Position numbers and translations under genes: made by a program. A stretch of DNA of 64,000 nucleotides from a virus (lineage: Duplodnaviria; Caudoviricetes): positions 7,257 to 71,256 of IMG/VR virus record IMGVR_UViG_3300009563_000549. One strand, given 5' to 3'. Numbering within the stretch: position 1 is the first letter of the stretch; each line of letters begins with the position of its first letter. Under the pieces are notes generated by a model. The model made no database searches, was not told the origin of the DNA, and was given only the letters and a program-made list of their open reading frames with translations. This document shows, in pieces, positions 14,128 through 58,584 of the stretch.

Positions 14128-14132
14128 GTGAA

Positions 14133-14207
14133 TGGTACTCCCAACGGGAATCGAACCCGTGTTACCGGAGTGAAAATCCGGGATCCTGACCATTAGACGA
14201 TGGGAGC
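14133..14207 (-). tRNA. tRNA-Glu(UUC)
   Basis: CCGGA-ttTTCac-TCCGG, encoded CCA. Confidence 0.93.
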
Positions 14208-14210
14208 AAA

Positions 14211-14342: not shown

Positions 14343-14357
14343 GATTACCTCACTATT

Positions 14358-14693
14358 TTAGGATAGAGAAAGATCTTTGTTAATAGAGATTACGTAATTT
14401 TCTACTGTTAGAATTCCGTGACGAATCATAGACAAAATTTTTCGATTAACATTTTTGTAAGTTCCGTCGTCAAGCTTGACATAAGCTTTTTGATAAATGC
14501 TATAATTAATTTTTCCTGCATAAACCCAGACAGAGGGCTTTGCAAGCTTAAAAAGCATTTCTAATTTCACTTCACGAAGTGAAGTAGGTCGCAAATAGCC
14601 GCTTACAGAAGTAGCAAAGATAAACTTTTTGTTTTTCCAAGAGTTAAGTAGTTCAAGTAGTTCTTTCTGCTTCTTAGTCATTTTCTTCTCCAA
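14358..14693 (-). CDS. Hypothetical protein
   Basis: ORF track. Confidence 0.55.
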   Translation of the reverse strand: MEKKMTKKQKELLELLNSWKNKKFIFATSVSGYLRPTSLREVKLEMLFKLAKPSVWVYAGKINYSIYQKAYVKLDDGTYKNVNRKILSMIRHGILTVENYVISINKDLSLS

Positions 14694-15492: not shown

Positions 15493-15503
15493 TTTTGTCT
15501 CGG

Positions 15504-15791
15504 TTAGTTGTTGGTAACTACAGGGATATAAACACAAGACATTGTTCTTGGGCTTCTTTCACGTGGAATCACGTAACACTCTACGTTTTCACGCGGGGAA
15601 AATTTTTCAACCCTTTCCGCATAGTATTCCTGATTTGCTACCTCGCGCTGTTTCTTTTTCGTCTCTTCCAACTCTTCTTTTTCCTGAGACGTAAGAACAT
15701 CGCTTGGGTTTTCTTTACAAGAGATTAATGCAATACAAGAGATTGATGCAAGAAAATGTAGAAAAAATACTGTAAGAATTGAATTTTTCAT
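15504..15791 (-). CDS. Putative lipoprotein
   Basis: Hydrophobic leader ending ALISC. Confidence 0.6.
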   Translation of the reverse strand: MKNSILTVFFLHFLASISCIALISCKENPSDVLTSQEKEELEETKKKQREVANQEYYAERVEKFSPRENVECYVIPRERSPRTMSCVYIPVVTNN

Positions 15792-15815
15792 TATTTTTGT
15801 CTCCTGCAAGGAATT

Positions 15816-16133
15816 TTAGCTGTCAAACACGCCACAACTGCAGCGGTGCCAATCTTCCCACCAGCCGCAATTGTTTTTATGTCTTTTCTTCTTGATTGCT
15901 TCGAGATCATTTTTCAAATGAGAATGAAAAGTGTCCTCATCGTCATCATCACTAAGAAGCCAATCGATCCTATGAACATATGCGAATGCTTCTTCCAAAA
16001 GGACTACTGCTTTCTTCATCTCCTCAAGAGTTTCAGGAGTGTAATCCTCTCGTTTGTCCCGTAGAACATGAGAGATCTGTTCAGCAATGTCTTCCATAAA
16101 GAATTGTTTGTACTCAAACTTCCCACCAGACAT
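15816..16133 (-). CDS. Hypothetical protein
   Basis: MSGGKFEYKQ...HRIDWLLSDDD. Confidence 0.6.
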   Translation of the reverse strand: MSGGKFEYKQFFMEDIAEQISHVLRDKREDYTPETLEEMKKAVVLLEEAFAYVHRIDWLLSDDDDEDTFHSHLKNDLEAIKKKRHKNNCGWWEDWHRCSCGVFDS

Positions 16134-16171
16134 TTTAGCTCCAGACAATAGCAAGTTTTTGTAATGAAAAG

Positions 16172-16255
16172 TGCCTTAGGCGGGACTCGAACCCGCACTC
16201 CTTTGAAGAAACCAGATTTTGAGTCTGGGGTGTCTACCAATTCCACCACTAAGGC
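16172..16255 (-). tRNA. tRNA-Leu(CAA)
   Basis: CCAGA-ctCAAaa-TCTGG, long variable arm, A73. Confidence 0.92.
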
Positions 16256-16265
16256 ATTACAAAAG

Positions 16266-16296
16266 TTTTTAATTCGGTTTGCAAAGCGTGTAAAGG
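16266..16296 (-). promoter_or_regulatory. Promoter upstream of tRNA-Leu
   Basis: TTTACA-cgctttgcaaACCGAAT-TAAAAA (17 nt spacer). Confidence 0.6.
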
Positions 16297-16320
16297 AACT
16301 TACTTGTTTTTGTAATAAAG

Positions 16321-16392
16321 TAGGACGCCCGGGATTCGAACCCGGAACCGAAGGATTAAGAGTCCTTTGCTCTGCCGTTGAGCTAGCGTCCT
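16321..16392 (-). tRNA. tRNA-Lys(CUU)
   Basis: AAGGA-ctCTTaa-TCCTT. Confidence 0.92.
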
Positions 16393-16395
16393 GTA

Positions 16396-16470
16396 TGGTG
16401 CCAAAAGAAGGATTCGAACCTACAACTACTCGCGTATGATACGAGTGCTCTACCGTTGAGCTATTTTGGC
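16396..16470 (-). tRNA. tRNA-CAU (elongator Met or Ile2)
   Basis: CTCGT-atCATac-GCGAG, encoded CCA; atypical A32/C38. Confidence 0.85.
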
Positions 16471-16476
16471 AAAAAG

Positions 16477-16549
16477 TCTGAGTAGCAGGACTCGAACCTG
16501 CGGCCTCCTGATCCCAAATCAGGCGCTCTACCAACTGAGCTACACCCAG
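16477..16549 (-). tRNA. tRNA-Pro(UGG)
   Basis: CCTGA-ttTGGga-TCAGG, C1:G72, A73. Confidence 0.92.
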
Positions 16550-16560
16550 AAATCAAAAAG

Positions 16561-16649
16561 TAGGAGAGGTGGGATTCGAACCCACAGTGTTTACCCGGAG
16601 GGAACGGATTTACAGTCCGTCGCTAGACCACCACCCTAGCAGCTCTCCT
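16561..16649 (-). tRNA. tRNA-Tyr(GUA)
   Basis: ACGGA-ctGTAaa-TCCGT, long variable arm. Confidence 0.9.
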
Positions 16650-16661
16650 AAAATTTTAAAG

Positions 16662-16733
16662 TGGGTTGCGTGGGATTCGAACCCACAACCGACGGATTAA
16701 AAGTCCGATGCTCTACCGTTGAGCTAGCAACCC
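16662..16733 (-). tRNA. tRNA-Lys(UUU)
   Basis: Anticodon loop ctTTTaa, standard D and T arms. Confidence 0.92.
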
Positions 16734-16741
16734 AAAAAAAG

Positions 16742-16815
16742 TCTCCCCACCAGGATTCGAACCTGGGACCTGCGGCTTAGAAGGCCGATGCTCTGTCCAG
16801 CTGAGCTATGGAGAG
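16742..16815 (-). tRNA. tRNA-Arg(UCU)
   Basis: Anticodon loop ctTCTaa. Confidence 0.92.
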
Positions 16816-16820
16816 AAAAG

Positions 16821-16894
16821 TAGGACGGGTGGGGGTTGAACCCACGTATCTTCAGGATATAAGCCTGACGCCTTCACCACTTGGCTACCGTCCT
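16821..16894 (-). tRNA. tRNA-Ile(UAU)
   Basis: TCAGG-ctTATat-CCTGA; acceptor AGGACGG/CCGTCCT, A73. Confidence 0.88.
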
Positions 16895-16925
16895 ACAAGG
16901 TAGATGTTGTTATCTTATCAAGATG

Positions 16926-17240
16926 TTAGAGATTGTTCAACTTTTCGATTAAATTTAAAACGCCTTTTTCTGAGGAACCAACCTGACTGTCAATAAGCAC
17001 TCCGTTGTGATAAGCTAAAACAGTTGGAATAGATAAAACATTCATTGAACGTGCAAATTCACTAGAATTTTCTATATCAACATAAGCAAATTGAATGTTA
17101 GCGTTAAGAGACGAAAAATTCTCCATCTTTGGTTTTAACATTTTGCAAGGACCGCACCACTCAGCTCCAAGCTGGAGGATGAGCTTTTGTGAAGTGCCAA
17201 TTTTGGCGGTTACTTCTGACGAAGATGCAATTTCTAACAT
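16926..17240 (-). CDS. trxA: Thioredoxin
   Basis: WCGPC, VLSIPT. Confidence 0.92.
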   Translation of the reverse strand: MLEIASSSEVTAKIGTSQKLILQLGAEWCGPCKMLKPKMENFSSLNANIQFAYVDIENSSEFARSMNVLSIPTVLAYHNGVLIDSQVGSSEKGVLNLIEKLNNL

Positions 17241-17276
17241 TTTAGATCCTGTTATACGTTTTTTATGATGAGAAAA

Positions 17277-17352
17277 TGGCGACGACAGCAGGACTCGAAC
17301 CTGCGACCAACGGATTAACAGTCCATCGCTCTACCAACTGAGCTATGTCGTC
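17277..17352 (-). tRNA. tRNA-Asn(GUU)
   Basis: Loop ctGTTaa, encoded CCA. Confidence 0.93.
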
Positions 17353-17356
17353 AAAT

Positions 17357-17431
17357 TGGAGCGGGAGACGGGACTCGAACCCGCAACAGTCAGCTTGGAA
17401 GGCTGAAGCTCTACCATTGAGCTACTCCCGC
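17357..17431 (-). tRNA. tRNA-Gly(UCC)
   Basis: TCAGC-ctTCCaa-GCTGA, U73, encoded CCA. Confidence 0.93.
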
Positions 17432-17444
17432 ATAGTAATAAAAG

Positions 17445-17529
17445 AGGAAGCGGAGGGATTCGAACCCTCGGAGCCTTTCGACTCGGCGGTTTTCAAGACC
17501 GCTGCCTTAAACCACTCGGCCACGCTTCC
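17445..17529 (-). tRNA. tRNA-Ser(UGA)
   Basis: GCGGT-ctTGAaa-ACCGC, long variable arm. Confidence 0.92.
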
Positions 17530-17532
17530 AAA

Positions 17533-17621
17533 TGGAGCCCGGAGTGGGATTCGAACCCACGATGCGGTATTACCCAACCGCCTTACAAGAGCGGTGCCTT
17601 CGACCTCTGGGCAATCCGGGC
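17533..17621 (-). tRNA. tRNA-Thr(UGU) with atypical long variable arm
   Basis: Acceptor GCCCGGA/TCCGGGC, U73, CCA; CCGCT-ctTGTaa-GGCGG; ~17 nt variable region; class II-type D arm. Confidence 0.85.
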
Positions 17622-41205: not shown

Positions 41206-41895
41206 TTATTCAGACATTTTAGAAACTTCAAGAATGTTACCTACTGAGGTTATCTTTTCCATAACTCCGTCATGACAGCAAGATCCGTTGCTGAAAACAG
41301 TTTTAAGACCAAGCATAGTTCTTGTTCCGTTGTTTTGCAGGTCTCCGTCAGAATGAACATGACCAAAAAGATGCGCCTCAAGCCTCAGCGCCATAACCCT
41401 CTTTTGAAGAGCCCTGCAACCAACAAGCTCGATGTCATTTTGACGACTGTATGTTGCATCAAGACAAGAGAAGGGAGGTCCATGAGTAACGAGAACATCT
41501 GTGTCTTCAGGAATGTTTTGCCACTTTTTGTTTAGCGATCCTCGACCAACCATCCAAGCCCATTCACCATAGCGTGGAACCCAAGGAGAGCCCCAAATTT
41601 TGATTCCGCTAATTTCTGTTCCTGAATCTACAAGAGGTGTAATACCCAAATCAATGAGCTCGTCTTTTCTTACAAGGTTGCGCTCAAATGATGTTTCATG
41701 ATTTCCGGGAACAAAAATTTTGTGAGGAATAGAAAGATTTGAAAACCAAGCAAGAAAATTACGGAATTCTTTTTCGTTGATGTAAGGGTTTTTATTGTTT
41801 GAAGCATCTCCGCTATGGACAACGACCTCAACATCGTTGGGAACAGGAAGTTGTTCATGTAATCCGTGAGTGTCAGAAATGTGCCAAAGCTTCAT
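41206..41895 (-). CDS. Metallophosphoesterase (calcineurin-like)
   Basis: ISDTH, HSGD, PGNHE, LVTHGPP, FGHVH. Confidence 0.92.
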   Translation of the reverse strand: MKLWHISDTHGLHEQLPVPNDVEVVVHSGDASNNKNPYINEKEFRNFLAWFSNLSIPHKIFVPGNHETSFERNLVRKDELIDLGITPLVDSGTEISGIKIWGSPWVPRYGEWAWMVGRGSLNKKWQNIPEDTDVLVTHGPPFSCLDATYSRQNDIELVGCRALQKRVMALRLEAHLFGHVHSDGDLQNNGTRTMLGLKTVFSNGSCCHDGVMEKITSVGNILEVSKMSE

Positions 41896-41906
41896 GTTAC
41901 CTACTG

Positions 41907-42089
41907 TTAGCAATCAGCGATTACGTAGTCTTCTTCAAAAGCCTGAAAAATAAGAGCCCAATGGTCATCAGACCTCTCACCTCTCGAGATTTCATTCGCA
42001 ATTTTTTCCGAAGCCATTTTAAGAGTGATGCCCTTAAAAAGATCGTAGGAGTTGTTTGCGTTCTTTTCGAAAGGTCCTTGAACAGTCAT
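41907..42089 (-). CDS. Hypothetical protein
   Basis: Short ORF behind ACCGAATTA promoter, RBS GAGG. Confidence 0.55.
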   Translation of the reverse strand: MTVQGPFEKNANNSYDLFKGITLKMASEKIANEISRGERSDDHWALIFQAFEEDYVIADC

Positions 42090-42149: not shown

Positions 42150-42665
42150 TTAGTGGTGTTTTTTCATCATAAGCTGGATTTTTCGAAATGCTTCTGCGTT
42201 TCCTTTTGCGTCATTCACAGGATTGTGATCATGAGCTGTTTCACGCAAATGATGCCACTTTGCACGCATGTTACCCACAGCTCCACAATACAGATCACCA
42301 ATTCTACGAGCAGAATACCCAAAAGGGTTTTCGCCTAAGTAGAGATGAAAGTAGTAGTTGATCCACTGCCAATCAAAAGCAGGATTATCTGAGATAAAAA
42401 TTGGACGTGACCCTCCGTTTGTCTCCAAAATCCAATCTTTAAAATCGAACATTGCTTTATGAGGGTCACCGTATTTTTCATGAGTTGCCCTGTCAGGACA
42501 AGAAATTTTTAAAGCCTCCAGCTTATAGTTGGGAGTGATTGGGCGCGTTTCTCTGTAAAAGGTTGTCTCAAGGTTTTCGTCAAATTTTACTGCACCAAAA
42601 CTTACCATTGAAAAAAGACCAGGACAAGGACCGTCAGATTCTACATCTACAAAATAGTAGCTCAT
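42150..42665 (-). CDS. DEDDh 3'-5' exoribonuclease (Rv2179c-like)
   Basis: FVDVESDG, NPAFDWQW, HDHNPVNDA. Confidence 0.85.
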   Translation of the reverse strand: MSYYFVDVESDGPCPGLFSMVSFGAVKFDENLETTFYRETRPITPNYKLEALKISCPDRATHEKYGDPHKAMFDFKDWILETNGGSRPIFISDNPAFDWQWINYYFHLYLGENPFGYSARRIGDLYCGAVGNMRAKWHHLRETAHDHNPVNDAKGNAEAFRKIQLMMKKHH

Positions 42666-44114: not shown

Positions 44115-44687
44115 TTATTCATGTTCCATCATAAGAGCGCATGAGTCATCATCTGCATCTTCTTTTGCTTTTTCTATGTAAGATCTAACTGCGCTGATAA
44201 CGATAGCCGGATCTTTGCAAAGATCAAAGTGCGTCAGCTCTCCGTCGTAACCCGATGCAAGCTTCTCAATTTCCCGAAGAGCAGAATACATTCTTTCTGT
44301 CAAAGTGTCAGGCTGCTTTTTGTAAAGCATGTTCAAGAGCCATCCCATCCATCTTTCTTCTACTGCTGTCTCTGTTACTGAAATTACAGTATGCGGGACC
44401 GCCAGCTCAGCGAGGATTTGTGAAACTAACTTTGCCGCAGGGTGATTTGCGGAAGAAACGCATACAGGAACGTTGCGAGGCCCCAAGACCTCCTGGGCAT
44501 AATGCTGCCCATTCCAGACAGGCATGTCGTGGTCGAGCATGACAGCAAACACCTTCCCGCTGTCCAAAAGAATTTCAGCAGCATCAGGTGACTGCACGCA
44601 ACACACGATTACATCGTGTTCTAGCAATAGGTTTGCAATGTGCGAATATCTTGCTGCGTCATCATCAATTGCAAGTAAAACTTTCAT
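44115..44687 (-). CDS. Receiver-like domain protein (cyclic-phosphate-processing receiver type)
   Basis: LAIDDDAARY...VMLDHDM...SSAN. Confidence 0.6.
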   Translation of the reverse strand: MKVLLAIDDDAARYSHIANLLLEHDVIVCCVQSPDAAEILLDSGKVFAVMLDHDMPVWNGQHYAQEVLGPRNVPVCVSSANHPAAKLVSQILAELAVPHTVISVTETAVEERWMGWLLNMLYKKQPDTLTERMYSALREIEKLASGYDGELTHFDLCKDPAIVISAVRSYIEKAKEDADDDSCALMMEHE

Positions 44688-44699
44688 TTTATCTCCTAT

Positions 44700-45056
44700 T
44701 CAAATTGAGCATTTTGACGGCGTGACTGTAACTGTTTGACGACCGAACCTCTTTGCAGACTCTTTAGATTTTAAGAGAAGATCGACTCTGTTTCCCTTAA
44801 TGTCTCCGCCCACGTCAGCAGCAAGATAAACTGTGCTGTGACCATCAGCAAATTTTACTCTGTAACACTTACCGAGTGTAAGAACTTTTGGATCAACTGC
44901 CATGATTTTTGCAGACCAAGGATCAGCTACAATCCCAATTTTTGTTATTCCGGTGCAACCTACACAATCCGCAGTGTAAGCCGTTGCAACAAATTTACGT
45001 CCAGAGTCAGCAGTTGCGGATGCAAAAGCAAAGAACATAAGAAAGAAAATTTTCAT
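44700..45056 (-). CDS. Secreted 3D-domain (peptidoglycan-modifying) protein
   Basis: Signal peptide; ATAYT...AVDPKV...AADVGGDIKGNRVDL. Confidence 0.85.
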   Translation of the reverse strand: MKIFFLMFFAFASATADSGRKFVATAYTADCVGCTGITKIGIVADPWSAKIMAVDPKVLTLGKCYRVKFADGHSTVYLAADVGGDIKGNRVDLLLKSKESAKRFGRQTVTVTPSKCSI

Positions 45057-45138: not shown

Positions 45139-45414
45139 TTAAAATTTAAGAGTGCTTAAAGTGTTTGCTTTCAAATGATAATGCGACGGAATACCGCTTC
45201 CGTCACCGTCTTCTTCTCCGAAAAGGAATAATCGACCATCACCCCACCCATCGCCTGGGATTATGTGATCGCTATAACGATAGCCGTCTCCGTACCCATC
45301 TTCTCCACCTACCTCAAAACCTTGCCCGTGGCCATTACCATTTGTCAATGAGCCGTGACAAAAATTTAGAGCAATTTCTTCATCAGTGTAGATGGAGAAA
45401 AAAATCCAATTCAA
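45139..45414 (-). CDS. Orphan member of the W-F-CxG Gly-rich family
   Basis: MNWIFFSIYTDEEIALNFCHGSLTNGNGHGQG...GDGWGDG. Confidence 0.8.
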   Translation of the reverse strand: MNWIFFSIYTDEEIALNFCHGSLTNGNGHGQGFEVGGEDGYGDGYRYSDHIIPGDGWGDGRLFLFGEEDGDGSGIPSHYHLKANTLSTLKF

Positions 45415-49241: not shown

Positions 49242-49763
49242 TTACTTTTCTTTTTTAGACTTTGCTAATTTTGAAAAGCCTTTTTTAAGAGCTTCAACAA
49301 CAGTTGGGATAAAAGAGTAGTTTCCAATTTCATCTTCTGAAATCCACTCGTATTTATCATTTTCTGCAATTCCGTGAGTTTCTACAAGCTTAACTTCGCC
49401 GCTCCACTCACCTGGCATTGTTATGAAAAACGCCGCCGACCATTTTTCTTTTTCGTAATTGATTACTGCAAGAGGAGAAATTTTTCCAATTTTCAACGTC
49501 GTTTCTTCCGACGCTTCTCTCTTTGCAGCTTTCATAGCGCTTTCTCCTTCGTCAATGCTTCCACCTGGAAGACTCCATTTTCCAGGCATCCAAGGAGCAG
49601 TAGGTCCTCTTCGAAGGATTAGCACTTTACGATCTTTGTTAAGAACAACGGTCGCGGCTGAACTTGGCTCATACTTACCTGATGCTTCTTGAAGAGAACC
49701 ATTACGTTCTAATCTTAGCATTTCACGAATGATTAATCTTAAAGCTAGATTTTTATCAAGCAT
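49242..49763 (-). CDS. NUDIX hydrolase (paralog of 21376)
   Basis: TAPWMPGKWSLPGGSIDEGESAMKAAKREASEET. Confidence 0.9.
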   Translation of the reverse strand: MLDKNLALRLIIREMLRLERNGSLQEASGKYEPSSAATVVLNKDRKVLILRRGPTAPWMPGKWSLPGGSIDEGESAMKAAKREASEETTLKIGKISPLAVINYEKEKWSAAFFITMPGEWSGEVKLVETHGIAENDKYEWISEDEIGNYSFIPTVVEALKKGFSKLAKSKKEK

Positions 49764-49767
49764 GACA

Positions 49768-50016
49768 TCAAAATCCTTGATCAAATTTTTCTTGATCTTT
49801 TTTAAATTCTGCGTAAAAGCCGTCAATTACACTCATCATTTCATCATATGCACTGTCGACGTCACCGCCATTTTCATTCATCCAATTTTCAAGCCACTCA
49901 TAAACTGCAAGATCAAGACTTGAATTTGCTTTTGGTGGAGACGGATAAGACCCTCCCATCTCTTTAATGATTTGTTTTGAAATAACTCTACGAAGAGAAG
50001 ATTCAGTAATTTTCAT
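49768..50016 (-). CDS. Small protein with MKITESSLRRVI N-terminus
   Basis: ORF track. Confidence 0.6.
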   Translation of the reverse strand: MKITESSLRRVISKQIIKEMGGSYPSPPKANSSLDLAVYEWLENWMNENGGDVDSAYDEMMSVIDGFYAEFKKDQEKFDQGF

Positions 50017-50025: not shown

Positions 50026-50658
50026 TTATTTAATCTTTAAATCAAGAATTCCAAGTGAATTTAATTCGTCAAGAATAGGTGTCGATTTTTTCATAAATGC
50101 TCTTGACAATGAAACATCATTCCATTTTTTTGAACCACCAGAGTCTGCTGATACGGACCTTGACATAAATTGGTTACAGTCATCATCAGGATAGTCGGGA
50201 GTTAGATCACCGTCTTCATTATCAAGTTGAATTTTTTCGACATCACCTCTTTCCGTATCATAGAAATCCCAAATTTTCTGAGCCTTGTCACTTACTTCAT
50301 CACGGTCAGATGCAAGTGAGAGTCCTTTTAAAGAAAGAATTTCCATTGCAATATCATAGATAAGTGGTCCAAGTCCTTTGACTCTTGCAGAAGACCATGT
50401 TACTTCCCAAGCCTTTGAACAGGGACCACCAGCTTGTAAGTTGTAGTACGGTTTTTCAAATCTTATTTCAGCAGCACGTTCAACTTCGCCGGAGTCTTTG
50501 TTCGTTATGTAAATGTTTACATTACCGTTTGATTTTAAACATTTAGCAACGACATCAACATCACCAAGAGACATAAGGTCAGACGGAGTAAGAGCAGCTT
50601 CATTAAGTAAAAGCTGCTCTCTAATGAGACTTCTTAGAAGTGTCTCAAATTGTCTCAT
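50026..50658 (-). CDS. GNAT-like paralog family, copy 3
   Basis: GGPCSKAW...GLGPLIYDIAME...LASDRDEVSDKAQKIWDFY...QLDNEDGDLTPDYPDDDC. Confidence 0.55.
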   Translation of the reverse strand: MRQFETLLRSLIREQLLLNEAALTPSDLMSLGDVDVVAKCLKSNGNVNIYITNKDSGEVERAAEIRFEKPYYNLQAGGPCSKAWEVTWSSARVKGLGPLIYDIAMEILSLKGLSLASDRDEVSDKAQKIWDFYDTERGDVEKIQLDNEDGDLTPDYPDDDCNQFMSRSVSADSGGSKKWNDVSLSRAFMKKSTPILDELNSLGILDLKIK

Positions 50659-50928
50659 TTAGTATCTTCTGTACCTTGAGCTGCTTGATCCAAACCCATA
50701 GCCTCTCGAGTATCCTCCTCGAGAACCGCTGTCGTATGCTACACCGTCTCCATCATCGAGCAAACCGTGTGATTCTGGATCGTCATCAAAATACTCTTCG
50801 TTTCCTTCATCATCGACAAGATACGTCTCATTCCCTCTACGAATAAGAGCACGCTCAGACTCCATTAGTCTTTTTGCTTCTTCTCGAACAATTTGACGTA
50901 GCTTGCTTTCTGTAAGTCTCATAATCAC
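50659..50928 (-). CDS. Small protein with MRLTESKLRQIVREE N-terminus and G/S/R/Y low-complexity tail
   Basis: Ends GSRGGYSRGYGFGSSSSRYRRY. Confidence 0.65.
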   Translation of the reverse strand: MIMRLTESKLRQIVREEAKRLMESERALIRRGNETYLVDDEGNEEYFDDDPESHGLLDDGDGVAYDSGSRGGYSRGYGFGSSSSRYRRY

Positions 50929-51003: not shown

Positions 51004-51360
51004 TCACAAATACTTTAAGCTCTGCCCGTCGCCCTCTTCATTTCCGTAAGTCGAGGAATCTCCATTGTTAGGATCGTAATTGTCTATTTCTCCGAGTGAT
51101 TCTCCTTCTCCTGTTATGAAGAGACAATACTCACCGTTTCCGTATCCACCACCAGCCGATCTAGAAACAGGAGTGTATTCATGTTCTGGTTTAGAAGCGT
51201 CATTTTCCGACTGCGAACAATCACCACCTCCAAACCCTCCGCCGTCATAATAACCATAAGCTTGACTATAACCGTAGCCGTCACCTTTGTGTAGATTTCC
51301 TGCACAAAAATGTAAGCTATCTTTCTCTTTAGTTGTTATTCCAACAAATTTCCAGGTCAT
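51004..51360 (-). CDS. Gly-rich array member
   Basis: MTWKFVGITTKEKDSLHFCAGNLHKGDGYG. Confidence 0.85.
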   Translation of the reverse strand: MTWKFVGITTKEKDSLHFCAGNLHKGDGYGYSQAYGYYDGGGFGGGDCSQSENDASKPEHEYTPVSRSAGGGYGNGEYCLFITGEGESLGEIDNYDPNNGDSSTYGNEEGDGQSLKYL

Positions 51361-51611
51361 TTTGGACTCCCACCGTCACCGGTCCTGATAGTAAACCAAT
51401 TTTCGTTCTCATTTTTTGCGCCACCAGCGCCCCCGCCGCCGCAACCTTCTCCACAACCGTTTCTGTATCCGTAACCGAATCCTGTTCCTCCGCCGTTGTC
51501 TGCGCCCAGTTTATCATAGGTGCCCAAACCATCGCCTTCAGAAAGTGTAGCTCCACAATAACGTGAAAGTTTTTGGTCGAAGGTTTCCATTCCAATAAAT
51601 TGCCAAGTCAT
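51357..51611 (-). CDS. Gly-rich array member
   Basis: MTWQFIGMETFDQKLSRYCGATLSEGDG. Confidence 0.88.
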   Translation of the reverse strand: MTWQFIGMETFDQKLSRYCGATLSEGDGLGTYDKLGADNGGGTGFGYGYRNGCGEGCGGGGAGGAKNENENWFTIRTGDGGSPK

Positions 51612-51859
51612 TGTTCGTCTCCACCATCACCCCAGCCATCGCCGTCGTCGCCGTCACCTTTGCCATCACCGGCTTGGGCGGCGTAGCCGCAACCAAACCC
51701 GTGTCCATCTCCTATTCCATTTCCGTAGAGGTCTCCATCACCATCTCCCCAACTACGACCATTTTTGACTCCAAATCCTTTTCCTGAAGTCAAAGTCCCG
51801 TGACAAAAATTAAGAGCTTTCCTCTCAGTAGACTCCATTCCAACAAAGTGCCAAGTCAT
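51608..51859 (-). CDS. Gly-rich array member
   Basis: MTWHFVGMESTERKALNFCHGTLTSG...GDEQ. Confidence 0.88.
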   Translation of the reverse strand: MTWHFVGMESTERKALNFCHGTLTSGKGFGVKNGRSWGDGDGDLYGNGIGDGHGFGCGYAAQAGDGKGDGDDGDGWGDGGDEQ

Positions 51860-51861
51860 TT

Positions 51862-52140
51862 TTAATCTCCGTTGTCACCGCCTCCATCTCCATAATTGCA
51901 ACCGTCACCCCAGCCTTCCCCTGAATAATAGTGATCTACATATTCGTTGTAATAAGGAACGCTATTGACATTGATAACGTAGGTAGTATCTCTGCAACCG
52001 CTACCGTTACCTTTTTTATCACCATAAAAGAGTCCATCACCGCGTCCGTTAATGTGACCTTGATTATTGTCTGGAAAGCCGTGACAAATTGACAAAACTT
52101 TTTCCTCGATTGTTTCCATTCCAATAAATTGCCAGGTCAT
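51862..52140 (-). CDS. Gly-rich array member
   Basis: MTWQFIGMETIEEKVLSICHG. Confidence 0.88.
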   Translation of the reverse strand: MTWQFIGMETIEEKVLSICHGFPDNNQGHINGRGDGLFYGDKKGNGSGCRDTTYVINVNSVPYYNEYVDHYYSGEGWGDGCNYGDGGGDNGD

Positions 52141-52349
52141 TGTTCGTCTCCACCATCACCCCAGCCATCACCGCTTTCATATCCGTATCCGCAACCCCAT
52201 CCGTATCCAGGATTGTGTTCATCTTCGTATGCGGACCTGTTCCCCCATTCGAGTCCGTTTCCCATTCCGTCTCCTGACGTTAAAGTTCCTCCACAAAGAT
52301 AAAGAGCTTTCTCGTCAGGAGAGTCCATTTCGACAAAGTGCCAGGTCAA
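52137..52349 (-). CDS. Gly-rich array member
   Basis: MTWHFVEMDSPDEKALYLCGGTLTSG...GDEQ. Confidence 0.88.
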   Translation of the reverse strand: MTWHFVEMDSPDEKALYLCGGTLTSGDGMGNGLEWGNRSAYEDEHNPGYGWGCGYGYESGDGWGDGGDEQ

Positions 52350-52615
52350 TTTACGCCCCAGCCGTCGCCGTCATTTTCATAATCTGAATACTCTATTAAT
52401 TGTTCATCAATTGAGTAGTTTCCCCACTGAGATCCGTCTCCATCAATAGATTGACAATAAAAGCAGGAGCTTCCATTGCCGTATCCATCACCGTCAGTTG
52501 CGATGGATGCGTATTCTTCGCTAATCCCAGTCCCATCGCCAAATTCAGATCCTGTTTGGCAATTATGAAGAGCGCTTTTTTCTTGTGATTCCATTCCAAC
52601 AAAGCGCCAAGTCAT
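52346..52615 (-). CDS. Gly-rich array member
   Basis: MTWRFVGMESQEKSALHNCQTG. Confidence 0.88.
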   Translation of the reverse strand: MTWRFVGMESQEKSALHNCQTGSEFGDGTGISEEYASIATDGDGYGNGSSCFYCQSIDGDGSQWGNYSIDEQLIEYSDYENDGDGWGVN

Positions 52616-52836
52616 TCTGAACTCCTGCCATCACCGGTTATGTCTACGTCTACGTATCCCCACCCGTGTCCGTCTCCCCGTCCATCTCTGTATCCTTGTC
52701 CGTCTCCGTATCCCCGTCCGTATCCGTATCCCCGTCCGTCTCCGTCTCCAAATCCGTTTCCTGACGTCAAAGTTCCACCACAAATACAAAGAGTTTCCTC
52801 TTCAGGAGAGTTTGCTCTAACAAAGCGCCAAGTCAT
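52612..52836 (-). CDS. Gly-rich array member
   Basis: MTWRFVRANSPEEETLCICGGTLTSG...GRSSE. Confidence 0.88.
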   Translation of the reverse strand: MTWRFVRANSPEEETLCICGGTLTSGNGFGDGDGRGYGYGRGYGDGQGYRDGRGDGHGWGYVDVDITGDGRSSE

Positions 52837-53075
52837 TCTGAACTCCTGCCATCACCGGTTATATCTCCGTATCCGTATTCCCATCCGCTTCCGTTTCCGT
52901 CTCCACCTCCGTCTCCGTATCCGTATCCGTATCCGTATCCTCGTCCGTCTGCGTATCCACGTCCGTATCCCCGTCCATATCCGTCTCCCCTGCTGTAGGC
53001 CGACGTCATAGTTCCGCCACAAATGACCAAAACTTTCTCATAAGGAGACTTCATTCCGACAAATTTCCAGGTCAT
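52833..53075 (-). CDS. Gly-rich array member
   Basis: MTWKFVGMKSPYEKVLVICGGTMTS...GRSSE. Confidence 0.88.
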   Translation of the reverse strand: MTWKFVGMKSPYEKVLVICGGTMTSAYSRGDGYGRGYGRGYADGRGYGYGYGYGDGGGDGNGSGWEYGYGDITGDGRSSE

Positions 53076-53175
53076 GCTGCGCTCCTGAAAGACGTGACAT
53101 AACCTATTAATTCATTTGAGCAAAAGTAGAAGGTGAGTTTTGAAAAAAAGCTCAATTTAAAGTCCCTAAAGTACT

Positions 53176-53421
53176 CTAAAAATTATTCACTCCATCGCCA
53201 TATGATCGACCGTATTCGCTACCATAACCATATCCATCTCCTAAGCCTAATGCATCACCATAACCCTCATAGACACCGTCACCCCAACCTTCTCCTTCCT
53301 CACCGCCGCCGTATCCGCGACCAGAACCGTCACCCCAACCTTCTCCCTCTGATAAGGATGCACCACAAAATTCAATAATTTTTGATTCAAAAGTTTCTAT
53401 CTCAACAAAGTGCCAAATCAT
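53176..53421 (-). CDS. Gly-rich array member
   Basis: MIWHFVEIETFESKIIEFCGASLSEG. Confidence 0.88.
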   Translation of the reverse strand: MIWHFVEIETFESKIIEFCGASLSEGEGWGDGSGRGYGGGEEGEGWGDGVYEGYGDALGLGDGYGYGSEYGRSYGDGVNNF

Positions 53422-53663
53422 TTTTGCTGACCTTTGAATTTAAATCCGCCTCCACGACCGTCACCGGTAGAGATGCTGTCTTTGGTTAAGCTTCCATACC
53501 CAAACATAGCTCCGTCTCCACGCCTTAAAGAAGACCCATAACCCCAGCCATCTCCTTTATAACCGTCTCCTTCTCCGTATCCGTCTCCTGAAGAGAGCGT
53601 TCCTTCGCAAAGATAAAGAACTTTTAACTCAGGGGGTTCCATTCCGACAAAGTGCCAAATCAT
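53418..53663 (-). CDS. Gly-rich array member
   Basis: MIWHFVGMEPPELKVLYLCEGTLSSG. Confidence 0.88.
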   Translation of the reverse strand: MIWHFVGMEPPELKVLYLCEGTLSSGDGYGEGDGYKGDGWGYGSSLRRGDGAMFGYGSLTKDSISTGDGRGGGFKFKGQQK

Positions 53664-53929
53664 CCTATGTCCCTTTTAAGTCCGTATCCGTCTCCGTTTT
53701 CATATCCGTGTCCGCAACCGAACCCGCTTCCGCTTCCATCTGCATACACAGGTGAGTCTCCGCTGCCGTCTCCATCGAAGTCTTCGCCCTCAAAGATGCC
53801 CCCGCCATCGCCGCATGCGTCGCCATATTCAAATCCGTCTCCATATCCAAATTTTGACGCCGAGCCTACGCAGCAAACGTCCAAAGCTTTCTCCTCAGGA
53901 GACTTAATTTCAACAAAGTGCCAAGTCAT
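53660..53929 (-). CDS. Gly-rich array member
   Basis: MTWHFVEIKSPEEKALDVCCVG. Confidence 0.88.
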   Translation of the reverse strand: MTWHFVEIKSPEEKALDVCCVGSASKFGYGDGFEYGDACGDGGGIFEGEDFDGDGSGDSPVYADGSGSGFGCGHGYENGDGYGLKRDIG

Positions 53930-54150
53930 GCTGAGCTCTCTCCATCACCGGTTATGTATCCGCTTCCGCTTCCGTTTTCGTATCCGTTTCCGTTTCCGTT
54001 TCCGTTTCCGTGCCCGTATCCGTCTCCCCATCCGTATCCGTGTCTGTGTCCAAATCCAAATCCGTTTCCATTTCCTGACGTTAAAGTTCCGTCACAAAGA
54101 TTAAGAGCTTTCTCGTTAGGAGAGTCCATTCCGATAAAGTGCCAAGTCAT
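53926..54150 (-). CDS. Gly-rich array member
   Basis: MTWHFIGMDSPNEKALNLCDGTLTSG...GESSA. Confidence 0.88.
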   Translation of the reverse strand: MTWHFIGMDSPNEKALNLCDGTLTSGNGNGFGFGHRHGYGWGDGYGHGNGNGNGNGYENGSGSGYITGDGESSA

Positions 54151-54395
54151 TTTGGACTCTCTCCGTCGCCGTCACCGTCACCGTCACCGTCTCCCCATCC
54201 GTCACCGTCACCGTCACCGTCTCCCCATCCGTCTCCGTCTCCGTATCCATATCCCTGTCCGTATCCGCATCCGTTTCCCCGTCCGTATCCCCGTCCATAT
54301 CCGTCTCCCCATCCGTTTCCTGACGTCAAAGTTCCGCCACAAAGATAAAGAGCTTTCTCATCAGTAGTGTCCATTTCGACAAAGTGCCAGGTCAT
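54147..54395 (-). CDS. Gly-rich array member
   Basis: MTWHFVEMDTTDEKALYLCGGTLTSG...GESPK. Confidence 0.88.
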   Translation of the reverse strand: MTWHFVEMDTTDEKALYLCGGTLTSGNGWGDGYGRGYGRGNGCGYGQGYGYGDGDGWGDGDGDGDGWGDGDGDGDGDGESPK

Positions 54396-54628
54396 GCTGA
54401 GCTCTCTCCATCACCGCGAGAGGTGCCATAATCGAATCCGTCTCCTACTCCATTTCCTTCTTGACCCCAGTATCCGCTCCCCCATCCGTACCCGCACCCC
54501 AGTCCGTCTCCGTCTCCATCTATGTCTCCCCATCCATAACCCTCTCCGTCTCCCGATGTCAAAGTTCCGCCGCAAATGCGAAGAGTTTCCTCTTCAGGAG
54601 GGTCTGCTCTAACAAAGTGCCAAGTCAT
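54392..54628 (-). CDS. Gly-rich array member
   Basis: MTWHFVRADPPEEETLRICGGTLTSG...GESSA. Confidence 0.88.
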   Translation of the reverse strand: MTWHFVRADPPEEETLRICGGTLTSGDGEGYGWGDIDGDGDGLGCGYGWGSGYWGQEGNGVGDGFDYGTSRGDGESSA

Positions 54629-54637
54629 GCTGAGCTC

Positions 54638-54850
54638 CTATCGCTTATCGTATCCGTGTCCGTCTCCGCATCCGCCTCCGTATCCGCTTCCATATCCGTT
54701 TCCGCTTCCGTATCCGTCTCCGTTTCCACCTCCGTCTCCGTCTCCGTTTCCGCTTCCGTATCCTAATCCGTTTCCTGACGTTAAAGTTCCGCCACAAAGA
54801 TAAAGAGCTTTCTCATCAGGAGTGTCCATTTCGACAAAGTGCCAGGTCAT
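54638..54850 (-). CDS. Gly-rich array member
   Basis: MTWHFVEMDTPDEKALYLCGGTLTSG...GYDKR. Confidence 0.88.
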   Translation of the reverse strand: MTWHFVEMDTPDEKALYLCGGTLTSGNGLGYGSGNGDGDGGGNGDGYGSGNGYGSGYGGGCGDGHGYDKR

Positions 54851-55095
54851 TTTGGACACTCTCCATCGCCGTTATTGAAACCGTAAAGACTACGATCATC
54901 ATATTCATTTCCGCCGTCTCCATCACCGAAGCCGTCACCCCAACCGTCACCTCTCCAGTTTCCGTAATTACAACTGATGCCATTGCCGTCCCACACCAGA
55001 CCGCCGCTGCGTCCATCATTGATGGTAAGAGACCCACAACAGTAGGATAGAGCAACAACATCAGCAGCGTCCATTCCAATAAAGCACCAGGTCAT
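54847..55095 (-). CDS. Gly-rich array member
   Basis: MTWCFIGMDAADVVALSYCCGSLT. Confidence 0.88.
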   Translation of the reverse strand: MTWCFIGMDAADVVALSYCCGSLTINDGRSGGLVWDGNGISCNYGNWRGDGWGDGFGDGDGGNEYDDRSLYGFNNGDGECPK

Positions 55096-55352
55096 TCTGG
55101 ACTCTCTCCGTTGCCGTTATCAAAACCGTAAAGACAATTGCTTTGATGCCCACCATTGCCGTATCCGTCACCGCAGCCGTCACCCCAGCCGTCACCAGCA
55201 GAGTTTCCGTAAGGGCAACCGGTGCCGTTACCATTCCACTCCATGCCGGTGCCGGGCAGCGAGCCGTGTCCATCATCGGCAGTAAGAGACCTATAGCAAC
55301 GGAATGAAGCAATAGCATCAGCAGCGTCCATTCCAACAAAGTGCCAAGTCAT
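55092..55352 (-). CDS. Gly-rich array member
   Basis: MTWHFVGMDAADAIASFRCYRSLT. Confidence 0.88.
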   Translation of the reverse strand: MTWHFVGMDAADAIASFRCYRSLTADDGHGSLPGTGMEWNGNGTGCPYGNSAGDGWGDGCGDGYGNGGHQSNCLYGFDNGNGESPE

Positions 55353-55361
55353 GCTGAGCTC

Positions 55362-55499
55362 CTATCGCTTATCGTATCCGTATCCGAATCCGTATCCCCA
55401 TCCATCTCCTGACGTTCCTGCCCTTGTTAATGTTTTATTGTAACAACAATCAAGAGCTTTTTCCTCAAAAAGTTCCATTCCGACAAAGTGCCAAGTCAC
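55362..55499 (-). CDS. Gly-rich array member (GTG start, 45 aa)
   Basis: VTWHFVGMELFEEKALDCCYNKTLT...GYDKR; GTGA overlap with upstream stop. Confidence 0.82.
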   Translation of the reverse strand: MTWHFVGMELFEEKALDCCYNKTLTRAGTSGDGWGYGFGYGYDKR

Positions 55500-55750
55500 A
55501 ATGAACTTTCCCCGTCGCCGCCGCCGAAGTAGGGGAGGTCTTCGTACAAGCATTCACCACAACCAAATCCAAAGTTGTAGTCGCCACCATCTACGTTACC
55601 GGCACCTGTGCAAAGTGTCAGAGTTTCTTCACTGTCACCTTCACCATCGCCATATCCGTCACCGTATCCGTATCCATTCGTTAGGGTCCCATGGCAAAAA
55701 TTTGCAATTTTTTCTTCGATCGTCTCAAATCCGATAAACCGCCAGTTCAT
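55496..55750 (-). CDS. Gly-rich array member (first transcribed)
   Basis: MNWRFIGFETIEEKIANFCHGTLTNGYG. Confidence 0.88.
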   Translation of the reverse strand: MNWRFIGFETIEEKIANFCHGTLTNGYGYGDGYGDGEGDSEETLTLCTGAGNVDGGDYNFGFGCGECLYEDLPYFGGGDGESSL

Positions 55751-55811: not shown

Positions 55812-55840
55812 AACAAAAAAAGCGTCGGCCCAGGCGACGC
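55812..55840 (-). terminator. Terminator upstream of the array
   Basis: GCGTCG/CGACGC stem followed by T7 on minus strand. Confidence 0.65.
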
Positions 55841-56001: not shown

Positions 56002-56586
56002 TTAAATAAACCGACCCTCACCTTTGGGAATAAAAACTTCGTATTCATCTTTTGAGAATTTAGACTTGATGTCTTTGTAACTTGGAGTCTCTTTGTCTCC
56101 CCAAAACATTTTCCTCTTATCAGGTGCAGCAGCAGAAGCAAAACGATCATTCTCATAACGACCGTGAACATACTTTCGAAGATTATCAGCATCAACACGC
56201 GCCCATCCAGGAGCTGTTGGGTCGATCTCTGCTCCCGGAACATTTGGAATACGTGTGTAGAGACTACCTACGTATCGGGCACGTTTTAGTGAAAGACTTG
56301 GGTCCGCGCGTTTGTTCGCTTTCATAAGCTCGTATCGACTACGACGAGTCCCGCTAACAATTCCTGATGAATCTGTTGATCCAACAAGGAATGGTTCAAA
56401 GTGGGGAAAAATAAATGCCCAAACTCCAGGTCCTGGAGCTGTACCCTTCTCTTGTGGAACGGAAGACCACCCGCCAAGGCGCGTAACAACAATACCAGGG
56501 CCTTTTCTGTAATTTTCTGTACTTGCAATTTCAGAAATAATTTGAGCTCTTATGAGAGACCGAAGATGTGATTCTGTAATTTTCAT
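56002..56586 (-). CDS. Hypothetical protein with MKITESHLRSLIR N-terminus
   Basis: ATAAATA motif at 56601-56607, RBS GGAG/GAGG. Confidence 0.7.
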   Translation of the reverse strand: MKITESHLRSLIRAQIISEIASTENYRKGPGIVVTRLGGWSSVPQEKGTAPGPGVWAFIFPHFEPFLVGSTDSSGIVSGTRRSRYELMKANKRADPSLSLKRARYVGSLYTRIPNVPGAEIDPTAPGWARVDADNLRKYVHGRYENDRFASAAAPDKRKMFWGDKETPSYKDIKSKFSKDEYEVFIPKGEGRFI

Positions 56587-56620: not shown

Positions 56621-56842
56621 TTATTTAAGGAGAGAGTCTTTTTTGTTTTCAAAAAATTGAAGCTCGTAAATGTTGAATTGACATCTCATTCCGTCAATGA
56701 AGACAACAATTGGATTTGCAAGGTACTCTTCATCAATTGTCTCAAAGAAGATTCCGGCTTTTCCATTGTGAGGAGAAGAGCTTACAACTTTTACAAGATC
56801 GCCAGGCTTCAATAAAGAGGCCACCAGATTTTTTTTGCACAT
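56621..56842 (-). CDS. Small SH3/KOW-like protein
   Basis: LKPGDLVKV...GKAGI. Confidence 0.6.
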   Translation of the reverse strand: MCKKNLVASLLKPGDLVKVVSSSPHNGKAGIFFETIDEEYLANPIVVFIDGMRCQFNIYELQFFENKKDSLLK

Positions 56843-57018
56843 GATACAATCTTTCCGTGAGTGAAAACAACATCACCGGCGTATTTGCCATTTTTATCAG
56901 TCTGGCCAACGTAGACGCCAATTGAGTTGCACGGAATACTAAAAAATTCACCTGTTAGAGTATCAAGACCTGGGTAAATAGGCCACCCTTTGAGGATGAC
57001 AAGATCGCCAGGTTTCAT
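56809..57018 (-). CDS. Small SH3/KOW-like protein
   Basis: MKPGDLVIL...IGVYVG. Confidence 0.6.
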   Translation of the reverse strand: MKPGDLVILKGWPIYPGLDTLTGEFFSIPCNSIGVYVGQTDKNGKYAGDVVFTHGKIVSCAKKIWWPLY

Positions 57019-57042
57019 GGCAATCTTACCTTTCATTCTTTT

Positions 57043-57327
57043 CTATTCCTCGAAATCCGCTGAGTATTCAAAGATTTGCCAGCGCAACGACCGGATCATG
57101 GTTTGCCTGGCGCCCCAGCGCTCTTCCATGGCATCAACGATCTTCGAGGCAGATTTGGTGTCATCAGACTCCAACGCCGTGCGGACATCGCAAACCATCT
57201 TGAGGAATTCATCGTTCGTCAGACGAACAGCCTCTGCCATGTCGGGTGGCACGGGAATTTTGCCGAAAACCTCGCTAACAACGTACACAAAATCGCCTTT
57301 GACACAGATCTCAACATCGTAGTACAT
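57043..57327 (-). CDS. Hypothetical protein
   Basis: ORF track; RBS AGGAG. Confidence 0.6.
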   Translation of the reverse strand: MYYDVEICVKGDFVYVVSEVFGKIPVPPDMAEAVRLTNDEFLKMVCDVRTALESDDTKSASKIVDAMEERWGARQTMIRSLRWQIFEYSADFEE

Positions 57328-57376
57328 AACTAGCTCCTATAGGTTTAGTGTGCTAAAGTGATCCAACTGCCTGTTC

Positions 57377-57640
57377 TCAGATAAACGAGAATCTGGGTTC
57401 TTCGATTGAATTCACGATTTTTAGGTGCTCTTCTACACAACGCCGGGTGAGCTCGAGATCATTGACATCTTTCCATACACCATCAGTAGATGATTCCACC
57501 CACATAATGTATCGGCGGCGGACACCTTCATGACCACCGTCTGGCTCACCTGTAACAGGATCATAAGAGAGGCACATCCAAGTGATGTATGTCGGTGTCT
57601 GCCAAAGTTCTACCCCTTCACATGTGAGGTTCATAGACAT
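57377..57640 (-). CDS. Hypothetical phage protein
   Basis: LWQTPTYITWMCL; RBS AAGGAG. Confidence 0.65.
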   Translation of the reverse strand: MSMNLTCEGVELWQTPTYITWMCLSYDPVTGEPDGGHEGVRRRYIMWVESSTDGVWKDVNDLELTRRCVEEHLKIVNSIEEPRFSFI

Positions 57641-57963
57641 TTGCGCTCCTTACTGTCATTGTGTTTTACCACACAATCATTTACAAATTCTCGATACTTC
57701 TCAAGTGTAGGATGAGACCCTTCTTTGTCAAGAGGGCTGCGTGTTGCATCCACCATTTTGACATACCCTTCAAGAACGCTCCACAGTTCAACAATTGCCT
57801 CTTCGAGTACCTCTCGTACCGAATTATTACCCTCAGATCGAACGTCAACAGGATCGATGTGTTCTAAGTTTCTCATAAGCTCTCCTTGTCTAAGAATCAA
57901 ACCTATACCATCAGGAAGACGCATGTTTGGTAAGCGTTTCACAACGATGTCACCGGACTTCAT
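57631..57963 (-). CDS. Hypothetical protein (SH3-like N-terminus)
   Basis: MKSGDIVVK...GIGLIL. Confidence 0.5.
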   Translation of the reverse strand: MKSGDIVVKRLPNMRLPDGIGLILRQGELMRNLEHIDPVDVRSEGNNSVREVLEEAIVELWSVLEGYVKMVDATRSPLDKEGSHPTLEKYREFVNDCVVKHNDSKERKCL

Positions 57964-58165
57964 TAACCACCAAAATCGTAGGGTCTGGTTCTTGCCGGTC
58001 ACGATAATAACCGAAGCCCAGTCTTAGCTGTCCATCGACAATGGCGTCGAAATAGAAATCGCCCCATCCTCTGGACCGCACCGCTGTGACGAGGCCGATC
58101 CGGCCTGCCAAGACGGGGGGCCAGTGTCCATTGTCTGGGAATTGAACGAGGTCACCGATCTTCAT
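57950..58165 (-). CDS. Small SH3/KOW-like protein
   Basis: MKIGDLVQF...RIGLVTAV. Confidence 0.65.
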   Translation of the reverse strand: MKIGDLVQFPDNGHWPPVLAGRIGLVTAVRSRGWGDFYFDAIVDGQLRLGFGYYRDRQEPDPTILVVNEVR

Positions 58166-58349
58166 TAATCACCTTAATCCTTGAAGAATGAATGTCCTCA
58201 ATGGTTCCCGCTATCATGACCGCAAAGCATCCATATTCGTGACCTTTTGCGTCGCGAGCCGGACCCAAGACCAAACCTAACTCACCTTTATGGATGTATC
58301 TGGAGCCGTTCATCGCGCACGTGGTGGTGACGAGATCACCTGGTTTCAT
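58152..58349 (-). CDS. Small SH3/KOW-like protein
   Basis: MKPGDLVTT...ELGLVLG. Confidence 0.65.
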   Translation of the reverse strand: MKPGDLVTTTCAMNGSRYIHKGELGLVLGPARDAKGHEYGCFAVMIAGTIEDIHSSRIKVINEDR

Positions 58350-58584
58350 CAATTGCTTTGCTATTGTCAAAGATGTAAACCTGACTCAGACTATCCGTGA
58401 TCCCACCGTCGATCTCTAAGATCTTCCAAAGAATCTCACCTCGGTTTCGACCTCCCCACCCAAGTTCTGGTCGAACTGTGCTGCGATCGATCCATGAGCT
58501 AACTGTTAGGAACATACTTCCTAAAGACCCGTCTCTGTTCACCCACTGACGAACTTGTCCCTTCTTTACTCGAGGGCGTTTCAT
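58336..58584 (-). CDS. Hypothetical protein
   Basis: MKRPRVKKGQVRQW; RBS AAGGAG. Confidence 0.55.
   Translation of the reverse strand: MKRPRVKKGQVRQWVNRDGSLGSMFLTVSSWIDRSTVRPELGWGGRNRGEILWKILEIDGGITDSLSQVYIFDNSKAIDETR

Follow-up and report, generated by a model that had tools for sequence, protein, structure and literature searches.

How did near-identical stretches of DNA come to lie across the boundaries between small genes that are otherwise diverged? The question is raised by an array of 19 small, co-oriented minus-strand genes, identified from open reading frames and their translations at 51004-55750 of a 64,000-nt stretch of viral DNA (hereafter the window), which comprises bases 7257-71256 of the 71,256-nt IMG/VR virus record IMGVR_UViG_3300009563_000549. 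Judged from its sequence, the array is well supported as a recombinational mosaic. We consider it likely, with a probability of roughly 75%, that a translationally coupled operon of paralogues was duplicated in tandem and then patched by homologous exchange between the paralogues.

The record is ~17% complete by CheckV, which leaves ~83% of the phage genome unseen; it carries 14 tRNA genes, and its topoisomerase II large subunit shares 53-54% identity with the corresponding subunits in uncultured 634-642-kb phages. Hence the record represents one part of a very large phage genome. The array genes, named g01 to g19 in the direction of transcription, are as follows.

55496-55750, minus strand, g01
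55362-55499, minus strand, g02 (GTG start)
55092-55352, minus strand, g03
54847-55095, minus strand, g04
54638-54850, minus strand, g05
54392-54628, minus strand, g06
54147-54395, minus strand, g07
53926-54150, minus strand, g08
53660-53929, minus strand, g09
53418-53663, minus strand, g10
53176-53421, minus strand, g11
52833-53075, minus strand, g12
52612-52836, minus strand, g13
52346-52615, minus strand, g14
52137-52349, minus strand, g15 (TTG start)
51862-52140, minus strand, g16
51608-51859, minus strand, g17
51357-51611, minus strand, g18
51004-51360, minus strand, g19

In each protein, a conserved head of ~28 residues gives way to a tail enriched in Gly, Asp, Tyr and Trp. The tails take the form (Gly-X)n and are encoded by imperfect GGA-NAC hexamers with repeat periods of 6, 12, 18, 24 and 30 nt, so that the tail microsatellite reported in a preliminary description of this DNA is real.

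Near-identical blocks straddle the gene boundaries

The preliminary description had listed four pairs of near-identical junction blocks, and their coordinates, lengths and mismatches were all reproduced: 51583-51640 and 52112-52169 (58 nt, 1 mismatch), 52598-52641 and 52819-52862 (44 nt, 0 mismatches), 53908-53950 and 54374-54416 (43 nt, 2 mismatches), and 54611-54657 and 55335-55381 (47 nt, 0 mismatches). Every block straddles the stop of one minus-strand gene and the start of the next. The blocks are listed below, the last two pairs with the limits given by BLAST.

51583-51640, minus strand, junction block of g17 tail and g18 start; copy of 52112-52169, probable conversion recipient
52112-52169, minus strand, junction block of g15 tail and g16 start; probable donor
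52598-52641, minus strand, junction block of g13 tail and g14 start; 44 nt identical to 52819-52862
52819-52862, minus strand, junction block of g12 tail and g13 start
53907-53950, minus strand, junction block of g08 tail and g09 start; 44 nt, 95.5% identical to 54373-54416
54373-54416, minus strand, junction block of g06 tail and g07 start
54611-54662, minus strand, junction block of g05 tail and g06 start; 52 nt, 98% identical to 55335-55386 (1 mismatch)
55335-55386, minus strand, junction block of g02 tail and g03 start

Identity drops from 95-100% within the blocks to 38-60% within 60 nt of them, the exception being the tail side of the g12/g13 pair (~72%), where the 44-nt block forms the 3′ end of a longer tail match of 148 nt at 84% identity (52819-52966 versus 52598-52739). 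For the four pairs in the above order, mismatches over the next 60 nt numbered 37, 35, 24 and 33 on the side of the head body (Fisher p from 2e-5 to 1e-13), and 40, 17, 31 and 32 on the side of the preceding tail; Fisher tests of flanks against block gave p from 3e-5 to 3e-15. Exact direct repeats in the array reach 47 nt, whereas the longest repeat in shuffled controls did not exceed 15 nt in 50 dinucleotide resamplings or 16 nt in 50 hexamer-block shuffles.

Self-BLAST resolved two kinds of near-identical module, one covering the head (ATG to +84) and the other the junction (from between -21 and -34 to between +17 and +28). Two head modules illustrate the first kind.

54766-54850, minus strand, g05 head module (ATG to +84); 97.6% identical to the g07 head (54311-54395) and 95% to the g15 head (52266-52348)
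54545-54639, minus strand, g06 head module (-11 to +83); 87% identical to the g13 head (52753-52847)

The g07 and g15 modules are 93% identical to each other, and the sequences on either side of the module are unrelated among g05, g07 and g15. Likewise, the joint upstream of g06 matches the g03 joint and not that of g13. The head and tail pairings quoted in the preliminary description were correct: the EMD..DEKALYLCGGTLTSG head occurs with the tails GDEQ, GESPK and GYDKR, and the RA..PEEETL.ICGGTLTSG head follows MTWR in one gene and MTWH in another.

A perfect 10-bp hairpin was also observed in the coding region of the g15 head (52270-52322), where an anti-Shine-Dalgarno-like CUCCU pairs with a Shine-Dalgarno-like AGGAG. 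Close paralogues keep it only in part, and RNAalifold predicts no pairs over the 19 heads.

Adjacent segments of the array have conflicting histories

Recombination detection and self-comparison, which had been proposed as checks, both pointed to conflicting histories of joints and heads. We compared three segments defined relative to the start codon, namely the joint (-45 to -1), the head start (0 to 26) and the head body (27 to 86). Their identity matrices were uncorrelated (Mantel r 0.07-0.21, not significant; for junction versus head body, r=0.07, p=0.29). In g03 and g06, the joints are 91% identical but the head bodies only 47%; the head body of g03 instead pairs with that of g04 (73%) and the head body of g06 with that of g13 (82%). 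Approximately unbiased (AU) tests bore out this conflict in both directions: the head-body data rejected the clade (g03,g06) (p=0.0006), and the junction data rejected both (g03,g04) (p=0.005) and (g06,g13) (p=1.6e-44).

Furthermore, a 3SEQ-type test written for this analysis, with exact hypergeometric-walk p-values, returned 37 of 4076 triplets at Bonferroni p<0.01 and flagged mosaics in 7 of 17 units (g03, g05, g06, g07, g13, g16 and g18). The breakpoints lay at +5 to +18 after the ATG in five cases (g05, g06, g07, g13 and the 3′ end of the g03 tract), and the tract of the g16/g18 pair ran from -38 to +44. Overall, breakpoints fall into two zones, one immediately downstream of the TGGCANTTTGT stretch, at +5 to +28 relative to the ATG, and the other at the start of the hexamer tail (+79 to +84); these lie at or next to the sites at which crossovers had previously been proposed. 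Ends of near-identical blocks are found in similar places, with 12 of 46 at -5 to +30 (15% expected) and 9 of 46 at +75 to +90 (6.6% expected).

Orthologues point to a recent change at one joint

Orthologues from other assemblies bear on the g16/g18 pair. An orthologue of g16 (P0058, 93% identity) lies on an 861-nt contig in the European Nucleotide Archive (ENA), and two orthologues of g18 (P0057 and P0141, both 92%) lie on ENA contigs of 861 and 544 nt. Both g18 orthologues start MTWHFVGMET, whereas g18 of the window starts MTWQFIGMET, exactly as its paralogue g16; they thus differ from g18 at residues 4 and 6, where g18 equals g16. Since P0058 starts MTWNFIGMET, the F-I-G form belongs to the g16 lineage and is old there. 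At the protein level and for this one event, this is most simply explained if the lineage of the window, after its split from these relatives, had its g17/g18 joint replaced by a copy of the g15/g16 joint.

Searches for orthologues of g17 and g14 found none, and no related loci were found in IMG/VR, JGI metagenomes or GTDB genomes; one locus returned from a JGI metagenome proved spurious. A tblastn search for the family in GenBank phages was empty, and the three huge phages (~640 kb) whose topoisomerase II is most similar lack the family.

Separately, six residues distinguish g01 from its orthologue in another assembly (P0007, 93%), and five of the six fall in a nine-position stretch of the tail, where the window has GDSEETLTLCTG and P0007 has GDGKRTLTLFAG. 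Such clustering suggests that a small patch was replaced, as opposed to substitutions arising here and there.

The joint as a translational-coupling cassette

Stop and start codons overlap by 4 nt at 14 of the 18 internal joints (ATGA, with GTGA once and TTGA once), and GGAG or GGGA occurs 6-10 nt upstream of the start in 16 of 19 genes. This Shine-Dalgarno sequence is encoded within the C-terminal GDG-x-Ser codons of the upstream gene, and the end of one gene's tail therefore serves as the ribosome-binding site of the next. Taken together, the overlap and the position of the Shine-Dalgarno sequence identify the joint as a predicted translational-coupling cassette, a point that the preliminary description had missed. 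Distant members of the family retain the C-terminal motif GDG-x-S-[SPA]; as far as protein ends can tell, they are consistent with overlapping starts there as well. The g05/g06 joint block additionally contains a 9-nt non-coding spacer and a TAG stop. Such a coupling function explains why the joints are conserved as classes.

A model of duplication followed by exchange

In the model that we favour, the 19 genes would form a translationally coupled operon of paralogues that grew by tandem duplication and was later patched repeatedly, whether by ectopic gene conversion, unequal crossing-over or replicative template switching. Two kinds of site would host the exchange: the opening ~28 nt of the head, which are the best-conserved DNA, and the hexamer-repeat tails, either at or within them. 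These points coincide with the longest stretches of identity between arbitrary paralogues, which amount to 23-28 nt of exact match in the head start in addition to the hexamer repeats. Exchange at either kind of site is expected to keep the reading frame, so that hybrid genes would stay intact. The junction blocks (44-58 nt) and the head modules (~85 nt) would then be the footprints of the most recent events. The g12/g13 pair looks like a one-unit unequal crossover, and the patches of 44-58 nt look like short conversion tracts or template switches.

Because no reverse transcriptase, RecA-type gene, inverted repeat at a joint or recurrent promoter or terminator was found, general phage or host recombination, acting with no dedicated enzyme, is the likely agent. 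The earlier proposal that diversification needs no dedicated enzyme is reasonable to the extent that none is found in the 71-kb record; the record is nonetheless only ~17% of the genome. The accompanying idea of a working combinatorial diversifier is conjectural: the mosaic on which it was built is supported, but the pattern is what ordinary ectopic conversion or unequal exchange leaves behind. A stronger version would make the array a standing library: through frame-preserving homology, general recombination would frequently rearrange heads and tails and alter copy number, and the population would carry many versions of an acidic, disordered Gly-X set that serves in an arms race against the host, perhaps as decoys or as factors that counter its defences. 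We regard this version as rather unlikely.

Several points weigh against exchange as the explanation. The AU tests were not significant for (g16,g18) (p=0.49), (g13,g14) (p=0.14) or (g05,g07,g15) (p=0.20), because those rows are long branches. The clades and triplets were picked after the matrices had been inspected, and neither the high-scoring segment pairs nor the block-end counts are independent of one another, which makes the enrichment descriptive. Moreover, the comparative evidence consists of three short proteins, the record was assembled from short metagenome reads, and the g12/g13 pair is equally compatible with a simple duplication of one unit.

Alternative explanations

The last of these points leads to the explanation that survives best after exchange, in which out-of-register tandem duplication was followed by divergence only, driven by slippage of the hexamers and rapid evolution of the proteins. 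As hexamer repeats, the tails are prone to slippage, and in g12 and g13 they match at 84% over 148 nt and continue directly into an identical 44-nt joint, as such a history would leave them. Nevertheless, sharing joins not only neighbours but also non-adjacent genes up to 2.5 kb apart, and adjacent blocks of one unit have different nearest relatives, significantly so in the AU and 3SEQ-type tests. A fall from 98-100% to ~40% identity within a few bases is incompatible with a single age of divergence, and the orthologues show a recent change of the g18 joint. Divergence without later exchange is thus improbable.

It is also quite improbable that the mosaic is an assembly artefact, a chimaera in which variants from co-occurring strains were fused at short repeats of the paralogues. 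The sequence is a metagenome contig of an uncultured phage, and variant orthologues of g01, g16 and g18 do exist in other assemblies. However, the repeats span at most 85-102 nt, below the usual read length and the largest assembly k-mers, and the reading frames, starts and Shine-Dalgarno sites are intact at all 18 joints. In addition, the exact g01, g18 and g19 proteins are recorded from a second (Logan) assembly.

A dedicated diversification machine, in the form of a diversity-generating retroelement, an invertase shufflon or cassettes of the pilE/pilS type, appears very improbable. Diversity-generating retroelements are known in huge phages, and with only ~17% of the genome in hand such a system could lie elsewhere. 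Yet the 71-kb record yielded no match to RVT_1 and no RecA-type gene, and no meaningful inverted repeats surround the array, the only inverted repeats being three weak ones, none at a joint. Neisseria pilE/pilS and Borrelia vlsE undergo segmental gene conversion between one expression site and silent donor cassettes. The array resembles them in its segmental copying between repeated cassettes with short conserved stretches; unlike them, its copies are co-oriented and individually equipped with a start and a ribosome-binding site (start codons in 19 of 19, Shine-Dalgarno sequences in 16 of 19), so there is no expression site with silent cassettes.

Selection alone, acting at the nucleotide level on the coupling cassette and the N-terminus in the absence of any copying, hardly seems credible, for although the joint is functional, with GGAG and ATGA at nearly all joints and the C-terminal motif kept in distant relatives, coupling leaves the pair-specific identity unexplained because arbitrary joints are on average ~40% identical and fall into at least five classes, and that identity extends to wobble positions and, in g03/g06, to the 9-nt non-coding spacer.

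Comparison with known systems

By analogy, the closest parallels to duplication with exchange appear to be tandem families subject to concerted evolution and ectopic gene conversion and, among phages, the shuffling mediated by promoter-early stem-loop (PeSL) cassettes. The array shares with families under ectopic conversion the near-identical tracts between specific paralogues in otherwise diverged genes, the conflicting phylogenies of adjacent segments, the location of exchange in conserved stretches and the lack of need for a dedicated enzyme. It differs from typical families of this kind in being a huge-phage operon of translationally chained mini-genes, in which the exchanged unit often crosses a gene boundary because the conserved homology consists of the coupling cassette and the head start. 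Localized homologous recombination is also known to diversify bacteriocins, adhesins and capsule loci (bioRxiv 10.1101/2020.03.09.984088).

PeSL cassettes mediate modular shuffling of small open reading frames in T4-type phages (Arbiol et al. 2010, PMC2839356). As in the array, short conserved regulatory DNA between small, non-essential phage genes is the recombination substrate that reshuffles them. However, the genes between PeSL cassettes are unrelated, and each cassette comprises a sigma-70-type promoter and a terminator hairpin, whereas the joint of the array is a Shine-Dalgarno/ATGA coupling site within the coding DNA of paralogues. Promoter-like sites in the array numbered 8 against 7.5 expected and terminator-like sites 3 against 3.4 expected, and none recurs at the joints. 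The array therefore does not belong among PeSL systems, its joint being a coupling site and not a promoter-terminator cassette.

The precursors of prochlorosins (ProcA) offer a third comparison, with a constant N-terminus, a hypervariable C-terminus, many paralogues and recombination proposed as diversifier, although prochlorosin diversity has been attributed to insertions and deletions and not to module swapping (bioRxiv 10.1101/2020.03.09.984088). In contrast to ProcA, the array proteins have no match to the Nif11/NHLP leader, the window encodes no modifying enzyme, and the tails are Gly/Asp/Tyr repeats instead of cores rich in Cys, Ser and Thr. More generally, no Pfam leader family of RiPPs (peptides made by the ribosome and modified after translation) matched, and no radical-SAM, LanM, YcaO or protease match was found among 30 neighbouring proteins, most of the genome lying outside the record. 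Within the record, neither the Sm-like DUF6948 (PF22253) nor DUF6745 (PF20530; Atlas similarity just 0.78) had a match at E<=1, and no Asp/Asn hydroxylase was found.

The locus offers a concrete view of how a huge phage may keep a family of mini-genes diverse, with the coupling cassette and the codon-repeat tails doubling as in-frame recombination substrates. Should exchange turn out to be common within populations, the array would amount to a simple, enzyme-free means of diversification; otherwise it would stand as a classic example of concerted evolution in an operon of a phage.

An unannotated family of small viral proteins

Alignment of the array proteins showed that head residues M1, W3, F5 and C19 are invariant. 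Differences among the heads are commonest at codon position 3 and rarest at position 2, as expected of real coding sequence. GGA accounts for 55% of Gly codons in the array versus 38% in other long genes. The phage tRNA genes (14053-17621, minus strand) include those for Gly(UCC), Tyr(GUA) and Asn(GUU), which read GGA, TAC and AAC, the dominant codons of the array tails.

The proteins are acidic, with net charges of -1 to -15, and structure prediction gave low confidence both with AlphaFold2 (predicted local distance difference test score, pLDDT, of 48 for g17 from an 88-sequence alignment) and with ESMFold (0.33); on these models, the array proteins are probably disordered. Our guess, held with low confidence, is that they interact with the host under diversifying pressure.

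Profile searches (E<=0.001) recovered 54 proteins among representatives of 90%-identity clusters and 98 representatives of 50%-identity clusters. All are unnamed, measure 45-118 residues and lack Pfam domains, apart from one weak match carrying PF26059. The metagenome members have the same gene boundaries as the array genes, and several family proteins occur in pairs, on equal-sized contigs. The nearest ESM Atlas clusters contain viral hypothetical proteins only. Pfam and PHROGs searches with the array proteins gave low-complexity or marginal matches only (TrAA12, phrog_10432 and phrog_33993); phrog_33993 was rejected as an annotation, as it matches only the dispersed copy described below and also control genomes. 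Full-text searches of the literature found no description of the family. The searches thus flag a widespread viral family, of ~98 clusters at 50% identity, that is without annotation.

Features within and around the array

Further features of the locus, including a diverged twentieth member of the family, are listed here.

55822-55840, minus strand, terminator-like hairpin with T run, ~70 nt upstream of g01, which parts the array from the preceding gene
45139-45414, minus strand, dispersed twentieth family member of 91 residues with a TTG start and the head MNWIFFSIYTDEEIALNFCHGSLTNG (MNWIFFSIY...), diverged
56002-56586, minus strand, gene with helix-like N-terminus
50659-50928, minus strand, gene with helix-like N-terminus
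50026-50658, minus strand, gene with helix-like N-terminus
49768-50016, minus strand, gene with helix-like N-terminus
49242-49826, minus strand, NUDIX hydrolase, downstream of the array region
42150-42665, minus strand, Rv2179c-like 3′-5′ exoribonuclease, downstream of the array region
41206-41913, minus strand, calcineurin-like phosphoesterase, downstream of the array region

Within the array, a 100-nt gap (53076-53175) is the only sizeable non-coding stretch and divides g01-g11 from g12-g19. Although no family tail precedes g12, the sequence around its Shine-Dalgarno and start (caggagcgcagcATG) is similar to joints of the gagctcagcATG class. The dispersed member lies 6 kb from the array and adjoins a 3D-domain protein (44700-45056) and a receiver-domain-like protein (44115-44687).

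The helix-like N-terminus, which the preliminary description had called a cargo helix, is similar in the flanking genes on both sides of the array (M-K/R-I/L-T-E-S-x-L-R-x-x-I/V-R) and might act as a common signal for targeting or packaging. Five small paralogous genes located directly upstream of the array (56621-58370, minus strand) encode proteins of 71-123 residues with an N-terminal MKPGDLV motif. These proteins are predicted to be all-beta, with marginal hints of an SH3 or beta-barrel fold (E ~0.1; poor fold model, pLDDT 49), and this family could be a partner of the array.

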